From Escherichia coli (lineage in GTDB: Bacteria > Pseudomonadota > Gammaproteobacteria > Enterobacterales > Enterobacteriaceae): a stretch of DNA of 64,000 bases. Each line of letters starts with the position of its first letter. Within the stretch, counting starts at the first letter, position 1. The notes below the pieces were generated by a model. It saw nothing but the letters and a program-made list of their open reading frames with translations. It ran no database searches and had not been told where the DNA came from. The position numbers were made by a program, and so were the translations under genes. Positions 53,414 through 55,330 of this stretch are shown here, one piece after another. The DNA lies in assembly GCF_003019035.1 (NCBI RefSeq), contig NZ_CP027447.1; one strand, written 5' to 3'.

Positions 53414-54832
53414 TCAGACAACTTCCTCACCGTAACGCATAGTGCTGGTACGGTTGCGCCCATCTTTCTTCGAGCGATACAGACATGTATCGGCTTCGAC
53501 CATCAATTTATTAAAGTCATCGGTCAGCGTTCGGTACGATGCGCAACCACTACCGACGCCAATACTTACCGTGAGATAAAGCGTTTTTTGTTGCCAGGTG
53601 AACGGTTGCAGTTCAACGCCTTTACGGATTTTTTCCGCCATTAGCAGACCATCGACAGGATTCACCGATGGCACTGCAACAGCAAATTCCTCGCCGCCCA
53701 TTCGCGCCACCAGCCCCTTATCACCGACAATCTTCTGAATATGCTGGGCAAACACGCTTAACACTTTATCGCCACATTCATGTCCATAGTTATCGTTAAT
53801 GCTTTTGAAATAGTCGATATCAAGCAGCATGACAGTCAGATGTTGTGTCTGTTTCAGCGATGGACTTTTCAGCGCCTCATAAAGACCGGACCGTGAGTAA
53901 ACCTGAGTCAGAAAATCAAAGTCGGCTCGCAGCGCAACTTGCTTCATTAGCGAATTGATCGCTGCCACGCTAAAAGAAACCATAATTGGGCATATCGCCA
54001 TCGTGGCAATACCGAGACGTGCGGAGAACATTTGCGGAATGGAGAACGGCGAACCGACCGAGATATCAATCACCGAATTTGCCACCATTACGATTTCCAC
54101 CGCACCGGTGACAAAGGTCAACAGACATGTTACCTGCGGCGTATAGCGCACTGCACACCAGATTAATGCAGGCAGCGGGAACGCCAGACTCCCCGCTCCG
54201 CCAATGACTACCGAGGCAATAACCGACACAATAAGCGCGATAGCGGGCATCATCTGTTCTGCTTTAAAGCGCGGCAGCACTCCAGGAATTGCCAACGTCA
54301 GCATACAAGGCACGATCAACACGCCCGTTGAGAATTGCTCACTGAACCAGTCGGCAAGCAAAGGCCAGAAATCCAGACTATCAATACTGACCGAACCAAT
54401 CGCCCCGACAATAGCGCATAATAATGCGGCAATCAGACAGTAATTAAATAGCCGTAAGGCACTTACTGGCTCGTACTTATTTTTCCCCAGACGCTTATCC
54501 CGCGCGACCAGTAAGGCGACGGTAACAATAAACATCATATTGGAGAAATTGATAGCCAGTGAAACCAGCCCCCATTCGGTGGTTATGGCATCATAAACCA
54601 GCATCGCCACATAACTGATCGCATAGTAATGCAGTCGATTAAGCCAGACATAGCGGGCAAACACCCCCGCCATTACGCCATTCAGCGGCCAGAAAAGAGA
54701 AAGTTCGTGAACCAGCCGTAACTCTGCACCAATAAAATAGAACAGCGTGGTTAGCGCAAAAATAGCGATGCTATTACGTAGCAGATGACCTTCCTGGAAC
54801 AAACGGAAAGTTGAAATGGGCTGTACATGCAT
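53414..54832 (-). CDS. yneF: Membrane-anchored diguanylate cyclase (GGDEF)
   Basis: 472-aa ORF with N-terminal multi-transmembrane region and C-terminal GGEEF motif; start uncertain (I recall the K-12 annotation as shorter). Confidence 0.8.
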   Translation of the reverse strand: MHVQPISTFRLFQEGHLLRNSIAIFALTTLFYFIGAELRLVHELSLFWPLNGVMAGVFARYVWLNRLHYYAISYVAMLVYDAITTEWGLVSLAINFSNMMFIVTVALLVARDKRLGKNKYEPVSALRLFNYCLIAALLCAIVGAIGSVSIDSLDFWPLLADWFSEQFSTGVLIVPCMLTLAIPGVLPRFKAEQMMPAIALIVSVIASVVIGGAGSLAFPLPALIWCAVRYTPQVTCLLTFVTGAVEIVMVANSVIDISVGSPFSIPQMFSARLGIATMAICPIMVSFSVAAINSLMKQVALRADFDFLTQVYSRSGLYEALKSPSLKQTQHLTVMLLDIDYFKSINDNYGHECGDKVLSVFAQHIQKIVGDKGLVARMGGEEFAVAVPSVNPVDGLLMAEKIRKGVELQPFTWQQKTLYLTVSIGVGSGCASYRTLTDDFNKLMVEADTCLYRSKKDGRNRTSTMRYGEEVV

Positions 54833-54970
54833 TAATTATCTGTCCATACAATTGCGGGTGGCAATTATCTCAACGTAATAAGTAAATTCTTATAAAGGAT
54901 AGCATGTTCGCTGACAGCGGCGGCAAATAAAGATACCTAATGAATGCCATTTTATCGATTTCCGTAATTA

Positions 54971-55330
54971 TCATGGCTGATTCATCTGTATAACCAGCCA
55001 GTGATAGATTACCGTCACAATATAACGTTGTTGCTCCTCACTTAACGCTTCCCCCTGAGGAATGTTATGCCACTTAGCCAGACAACCGCGACAACAGGTC
55101 GCGGTGGCGTGTTGAGCGATAAAAACCGGATGCCCGCGCATGGGGGTTTGCTTACCGTCGTTAGCCGGTAATGCCGGAGCAAGACGTTTAGCGACAAAAT
55201 CTGCCGCATGTTGTTCAATGACTGGCGCGCCTTTCTCCAGACAATACTGACGCTCTTTCACACCCAAACGAAAGCGAGAGCGAAATTTTGAACGGGATAA
55301 ACGCGCGAAGAGTGGATCGAGAGACTGCAT
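54971..55330 (-). CDS. yneG: Conserved protein YneG
   Basis: 119-aa ORF whose start overlaps the glsB stop. Confidence 0.85.
   Translation of the reverse strand: MQSLDPLFARLSRSKFRSRFRLGVKERQYCLEKGAPVIEQHAADFVAKRLAPALPANDGKQTPMRGHPVFIAQHATATCCRGCLAKWHNIPQGEALSEEQQRYIVTVIYHWLVIQMNQP

Follow-up and report, generated by a model that had tools for sequence, protein, structure and literature searches.

The diguanylate cyclase gene yneF (dgcF) of E. coli has been described in two lengths. An extended yneF is found in O104:H4 and O157:H7 strains, and in K-12 the gene is truncated at the 5′ end by a deletion, carries a misannotated start codon and is not expressed (Richter et al. 2014, PMC4287979). 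In full-size YneF, some 300 residues at the N-terminus form a hydrophobic domain, and the protein is expressed very weakly and in a mainly RpoS-dependent manner (Richter et al. 2014, PMC4287979). Tagging of DgcF on the chromosome yielded no detectable protein in K-12, and the allele of strain 55989 was used in its place (Sarenko et al. 2017, PMC5635695). The K-12 truncation, the misannotated start and the lack of expression are therefore already published (PMC4287979, PMC5635695). In Shigella flexneri, DgcF raises the level of c-di-GMP while a GG to AA mutant does not, and both acid resistance and invasion are affected (PMC11327459). A CFT073 mutant deleted for yneF forms less biofilm and adheres less well, and the cyclase WspR restores these phenotypes (PMC3484386). 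Of the membrane cyclases tested by overexpression, K-12 DgcF alone left motility unaffected (PMC10127611).

The DNA analyzed here (the window) is a stretch of 64,000 nucleotides from E. coli that contains a dgcF gene of 472 codons. It can be said with little room for doubt that this is the intact ancestral allele, and that the 315 amino acids of the K-12 product stem from a 498-bp 5′ deletion after which a TTG was taken as the start. The analysis adds small points to the literature searched, namely the occurrence of the deleted allele in 22% of complete genomes, the likeness of the N-terminus to the MASE1 domain and a palindrome upstream of the gene. The features of the region are collected in Table 1.

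Table 1. Features of the dgcF region, numbered from the first letter of the window
Feature	Position	Strand	Basis
dgcF (yneF) CDS, full length, 472 aa, ATG start	53414..54832	-	ORF list; RefSeq identity; ortholog lengths
GGDEF (diguanylate cyclase) domain, residues 303-461	53450..53926	-	Pfam PF00990, TIGR00254
A-site motif GGEEF, residues 379-383	53684..53698	-	translation, ortholog alignment
N-terminal integral-membrane sensor-type domain, residues 1-302, ~10 helices, predicted N-in/C-in	53927..54832	-	model, hydropathy, relatives
TTG codon of Leu158, annotated start of the K-12 315-aa product	54359..54361	-	mapped; inside predicted helix 155-179
Segment absent from K-12	54400..54897	.	blastn of window vs MG1655; junction read directly
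Conserved putative 5′ regulatory block	54833..54908	-	alignment of E. coli, E. fergusonii, C. amalonaticus, Enterobacter, Lelliottia
TATGGA, SD-like	54843-54848	-	upstream block
Palindrome AATTGC-N5-GCAATT	54850-54866	-	upstream block, between -10-like element and start codon
TGAGATAAT, extended -10-like	54864-54872	-	upstream block

The dgcF locus and its reading frame

Judged by its sequence, the gene is the E. coli yneF/dgcF locus and its product belongs to the DgcF/YneF orthologous group. It is flanked by uxaB on one side and by yneG, glsB and sad on the other. The CDS is 100% identical to that of strain SCU-301 in RefSeq (WP_000558442.1, a 472-aa 'sensor domain-containing diguanylate cyclase'), and identity at the locus is 100% with SCU-301 and 97–99% with other E. 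coli. The ORF list gives the 472 codons as a single open frame on the minus strand, and an in-frame TAA two codons 5′ of the ATG leaves no room for a further upstream extension. An AlphaFold2 model built on an alignment of 78 sequences has a mean pLDDT of 93 over the whole protein and a pTM of 0.87. The initial annotation of this DNA had described a 472-aa ORF with a multi-pass membrane N-terminus ahead of a GGDEF domain, and the reading frame, hydropathy, model and Pfam matches all bear this out.

The full-length DgcF proteins of O104:H4, 55989, O157:H7, CFT073 and Shigella flexneri are encoded at the same locus, have 472 aa and are 98–99% identical. They share with the window protein the membrane N-terminus, the GGEEF site and the absence of an I-site. 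The window protein differs from them only by allelic substitutions that leave the structure unchanged. One of these is at codon 432 (53537-53539), which encodes Cys in the window and in SCU-301 and Arg in the common E. coli allele and in K-12. The change is probably neutral, as the column is variable in other genera.

The GGDEF domain

GGDEF is the sole domain found in a Pfam scan of the whole protein. The PF00990 match covers the full profile (positions 1–161) with an E-value of 4.5e-41 and 140.8 bits against a cut-off of 23.8, and the NCBIfam model TIGR00254 matches with an E-value of 4.5e-38 and 130.6 bits against a cut-off of 37.4. Residues G379, G380, E381, E382 and F383 of the A-site are invariant among the orthologs aligned. 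At the position of the RxxD motif (residues 370–373) the sequence is GDKG, and DgcF therefore has no I-site. This agrees with the intact A-site and missing I-site reported for full-size YneF (Richter et al. 2014, PMC4287979). By analogy with the orthologs studied in the literature, from which the activity is taken, the window DgcF is a putative inner-membrane diguanylate cyclase.

The deletion in K-12

Alignment of the window with MG1655 by blastn yields two collinear blocks, and the 498 bp between them are missing in K-12. The missing segment comprises codons 1–144 and one base of codon 145, together with the ATG, the SD-like motif and 65 bp of upstream sequence. At the K-12 junction ...GAACATGCTATC is joined directly to TTGGTTCGGTCAG... 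in codon 145. The GAACATGCTATC side ends 75 bp past the yneG stop codon, and no microhomology of note is seen at the junction. The deletion starts inside the conserved upstream block and the junction falls within a helix, the lost codons corresponding in the model to predicted helices 1–4 and most of helix 5.

K-12 dgcF (b1522, NP_416039.1) is annotated at 1610907..1611854 of NC_000913.3. With 948 bp and 315 aa it has the length of about 315 aa that the initial annotation had given. Its CDS begins TTGCTTGCGGAC, translated as MLADWF, and the product corresponds to residues 158–472 of the window protein with few substitutions. Unlike the window gene, K-12 dgcF is devoid of the upstream block, the start codon and codons 1–144, and it is annotated from the TTG of Leu158, which is the first start-type codon in the remaining frame. 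In other genomes, alleles of the K-12 type are marked by PGAP as a pseudogene, 'incomplete; missing N-terminus'.

The K-12 protein has 315 aa, almost certainly because 498 bp of the 5′ end of the gene were deleted. A single deletion took away the upstream block together with the ribosome-binding region, the start codon and codons 1–144, and annotators then settled on the first start-like codon, the TTG of Leu158, in what was left of the frame. The lack of expression in K-12 would be due to the joint loss of the upstream block, the ribosome-binding region with the ATG and half of the membrane domain.

Ancestry of the long form and its start codon

A search with the N-terminal 306 residues against 5.8 billion proteins retrieved orthologs of 472–482 aa in E. 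fergusonii, Citrobacter, Enterobacter and Lelliottia that cover 98–100% of the query. Identity to the query is 86–88% in E. fergusonii, about 84% in Citrobacter amalonaticus and 70–75% in Enterobacter and Lelliottia. In the alignment their Met1 residues share one column, and from about residue 18 on the sequences are strongly conserved. The gene order sad-glsB-yneG-dgcF-uxaB is retained in E. fergusonii and C. amalonaticus, and only glsB-yneG-dgcF is retained in Enterobacter and Lelliottia. In the latter two genera, dgcF and uxaB are separated by one or two additional GGDEF genes (GAF-GGDEF and MASE2-GGDEF) and an acetyltransferase gene (L011, 4060-5025; L012, 4130-6158), and a chemoreceptor gene takes the place of sad upstream of glsB.

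Over codons 1–144 the dN/dS ratio is 0.05 in the comparison with E. fergusonii and 0.12 in that with C. amalonaticus. These values cannot be told apart from those of the remaining codons, with synonymous sites near saturation. The differences within E. coli (2–6 per class) are too few for an informative pN/pS. On this comparison of sequences, codons 1–144 are under purifying selection. Neither the ATG of dgcF nor the ATGGA located 10 nt before it varies among six taxa from five genera. Orthologs, gene order, dN/dS and the invariant ATG together argue that the long form is ancestral and that its start is well supported. The case for the ATG at the first codon as the genuine start is built on this conservation and on the lack of any alternative further upstream.

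The initial annotation was right that the gap in length is real, that the long membrane form is genuine and that K-12 is the exceptional entry, but neither of the two causes it proposed holds. According to one of them K-12 encodes the same long protein and its N-terminus is merely unannotated. An unusual TTG start without an obvious ribosome-binding site would fit such a view, as would the frame that stays open upstream of it. However, there are 328 open codons against 315 annotated, so that at most 13 codons could be added, and a TAG in intergenic sequence lies 30 codons upstream of the TTG. The DNA for codons 1–144 and the ATG is absent from MG1655, and the difference in length is therefore not a matter of annotation. 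With the tagged protein also undetectable in K-12 (PMC5635695), the chance that this account is correct is negligible. The other proposed cause was that the start of the 472-aa frame is set too far upstream and that translation begins internally, for example at Met54 or at the TTG of Leu158. The SD-like motif before the ATG is weak, and residues 1–16 are poorly conserved and modeled with low confidence, which speaks for an internal start. Such a start would nevertheless cut through the helices of a confidently modeled, co-folded domain of ten helices, and it is at odds with the high conservation from residue 18 onward, the dN/dS of 0.05–0.12 over codons 1–144 and the invariance of ATG and ATGGA. 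It is also at odds with the hundreds of distant relatives that align from about residue 10–35 onward, and is thus very improbable. The conservation of the N-terminus in orthologs, which the initial annotation had named as a check, is present, as the orthologs begin at the same Met1 and the outgroup genera keep the 144 residues.

The existence of two length classes within one species also raises the reverse scenario, in which the short K-12 form came first and some E. coli lineages acquired the long form by insertion or fusion of a membrane module. No support for it was found. In every outgroup genus the long form occupies the same place on the chromosome, and the K-12 junction lies inside both a helix and the conserved upstream block. 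The remnants in six carriers of the deletion differ by 0–2 nt, which marks the short allele as young. There is hardly any probability left for this scenario.

The conserved upstream block

About 75 nt immediately 5′ of the ATG are conserved in E. coli, E. fergusonii and Citrobacter, and the sequence farther upstream is not. The block is conserved despite the saturation of synonymous sites in dgcF, and its counterparts are located at about 2425–2500 of loci L009 and L010. The block may have a regulatory role. Within the block, the arms of the palindrome are conserved and its 5-nt spacer is variable; it may be an operator or a hairpin in the 5′-UTR. The GGA of the SD-like motif is weak and lies 10 nt from the ATG.

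A scan of the upstream region for the sigma-70 consensus gave one good match (10/12), and the total count of matches was not above that in shuffled sequences. This match ends 3 nt before the ATG and therefore cannot drive the start of dgcF, so that its position rules it out as the dgcF promoter. No terminator-like site was found in the scan of the upstream region.

In the adjoining stretch at 54898-55000 (the 3′ end of yneG and the first 75 bp of the yneG-dgcF spacer), the window and K-12 share only 89% identity, as opposed to about 98% in the body of dgcF. Two classes of alleles can be distinguished in this stretch, with the window and the Nissle-derived SYNB1934 in one and O157:H7, O104:H4 and K-12 in the other.

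The N-terminal membrane domain

Residues 1 to about 300 are strongly hydrophobic. Ten helices are predicted by the AlphaFold2 model within residues 17–304, and the tenth is a single long helix that runs into the GGDEF domain; residues 1–16 have low model confidence and are poorly conserved. By the positive-inside rule, the K/R-rich loops at 112–121 and 180–190 are consistent with both ends being cytoplasmic. Going by its family, DgcF would act as a dimer in the inner membrane. Its activity may be gated by a membrane-level signal that the N-terminal domain would perceive in or at the membrane and that would be passed through the long connecting helix to set the activity of the GGDEF domain.

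The MASE1 family in E. coli comprises DgcE, PdeA, PdeF and UhpB. These proteins have an N-terminal domain of about 300 aa with some 8–10 helices followed by a cytoplasmic output domain, and in its model DgcF is predicted to have the same layout, with a multi-helix membrane domain of about 300 residues ahead of its output domain. Unlike them, DgcF itself has no match to the MASE1 profile (PF05231, gathering score 29.8 bits): a Pfam scan of residues 1–306 with E-values up to 10 returned only a spurious SAYSvFN match. The relatives of the DgcF N-terminus give a different picture. An exhaustive search of 1.84 billion representatives of 50%-identity clusters retrieved 418 of them at E≤0.001, hundreds of them distant and aligned from about residue 10–35 onward; most among the matches listed are about 460–490 aa long and have the same layout. 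A set of 78 relatives with E≤2e-15 to DgcF was scanned individually against Pfam. GGDEF is present in 75 of the 78 and a MASE1 match in 52, with a best E-value of 3.2e-11, and these matches are colinear and span positions of about 4–297 of the 299 in the profile.

Direct comparisons were less productive. Alignment of the DgcF family profile with the N-termini of E. coli UhpB and PdeF by hhalign gave E-values of 0.16 and 0.044 over short stretches, neither of them significant. UhpB and PdeF were also missed when the N-terminal profile was run by hmmsearch on every ORF of the window and three K-12 loci. A profile search against the sequences of solved structures yielded nothing meaningful for the N-terminus, and Foldseek found no match of the N-terminal model in the PDB at E≤0.001. 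By transitivity through its relatives, the DgcF N-terminus would lie in or next to the MASE1 family, at best as a divergent branch; it is described here as MASE1-like and is not called a member. In the literature searched, no paper links DgcF to MASE1, and in 2014 its N-terminal domain was described as bearing no likeness to other proteins of E. coli.

Distribution of the deletion and K-12 as a reference

Of 5426 complete E. coli genomes, 5414 contain the dgcF locus and 4196 the 498-bp segment. In 1217 genomes (22%) a 60-mer taken across the K-12 junction matches without a break, in 1212 of them at ≥99% identity, so that the intact and deleted classes together account for 5413 genomes. The deletion is carried by K-12 laboratory strains and by isolates from humans, pigs, cattle, poultry, capybara, frog, soil and wastewater. 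In the literature it is treated as K-12-specific; these genomes show it to be a natural allele that is not peculiar to laboratory K-12. Among the remnants of the six carriers compared, all frames are open and the 0–2 nt differences in 981 are too few to gauge decay. The identical junction in 1217 genomes and the small divergence thus indicate a single, relatively young natural allele. A study by Povolotsky and Hengge in 2016 (J Bacteriol) may already cover the distribution of the dgcF deletion among strains. A broader reading, in which the deletion is one young allele that maybe represents a selected loss in one lineage, the N-terminus is a divergent MASE1 domain and the palindrome is maybe an operator, is possible as a whole but has somewhat less than an even chance.

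There is little new biology in these results, and their main use is as a caution on K-12 as a reference. A 315-aa "putative diguanylate cyclase DgcF" is still to be found in the MG1655 record, with its start at a TTG inside a transmembrane helix, and set against this entry the normal dgcF of other strains looks over-extended. Cloning or deleting the K-12 gene tests a remnant and not the enzyme. As about three quarters of sequenced E. coli have an intact dgcF, DgcF is to be studied in those strains.

Five of the matches to the 498-bp 5′ segment of dgcF come from records classed as plasmids, which one would not expect of a core-like gene on the chromosome. In two E. coli products (460 and 514 aa) the DgcF N-terminus is fused to a HipA C-terminal domain, and in a third of 394 aa it is combined with a Bestrophin_2 (YneE-like) domain (these are among P0007, P0009 and P0060). 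In one further E. coli genome (hit H30), tam lies beside a shortened dgcF. The fusions and the tam-adjacent short dgcF suggest that the locus has undergone other, independent rearrangements.
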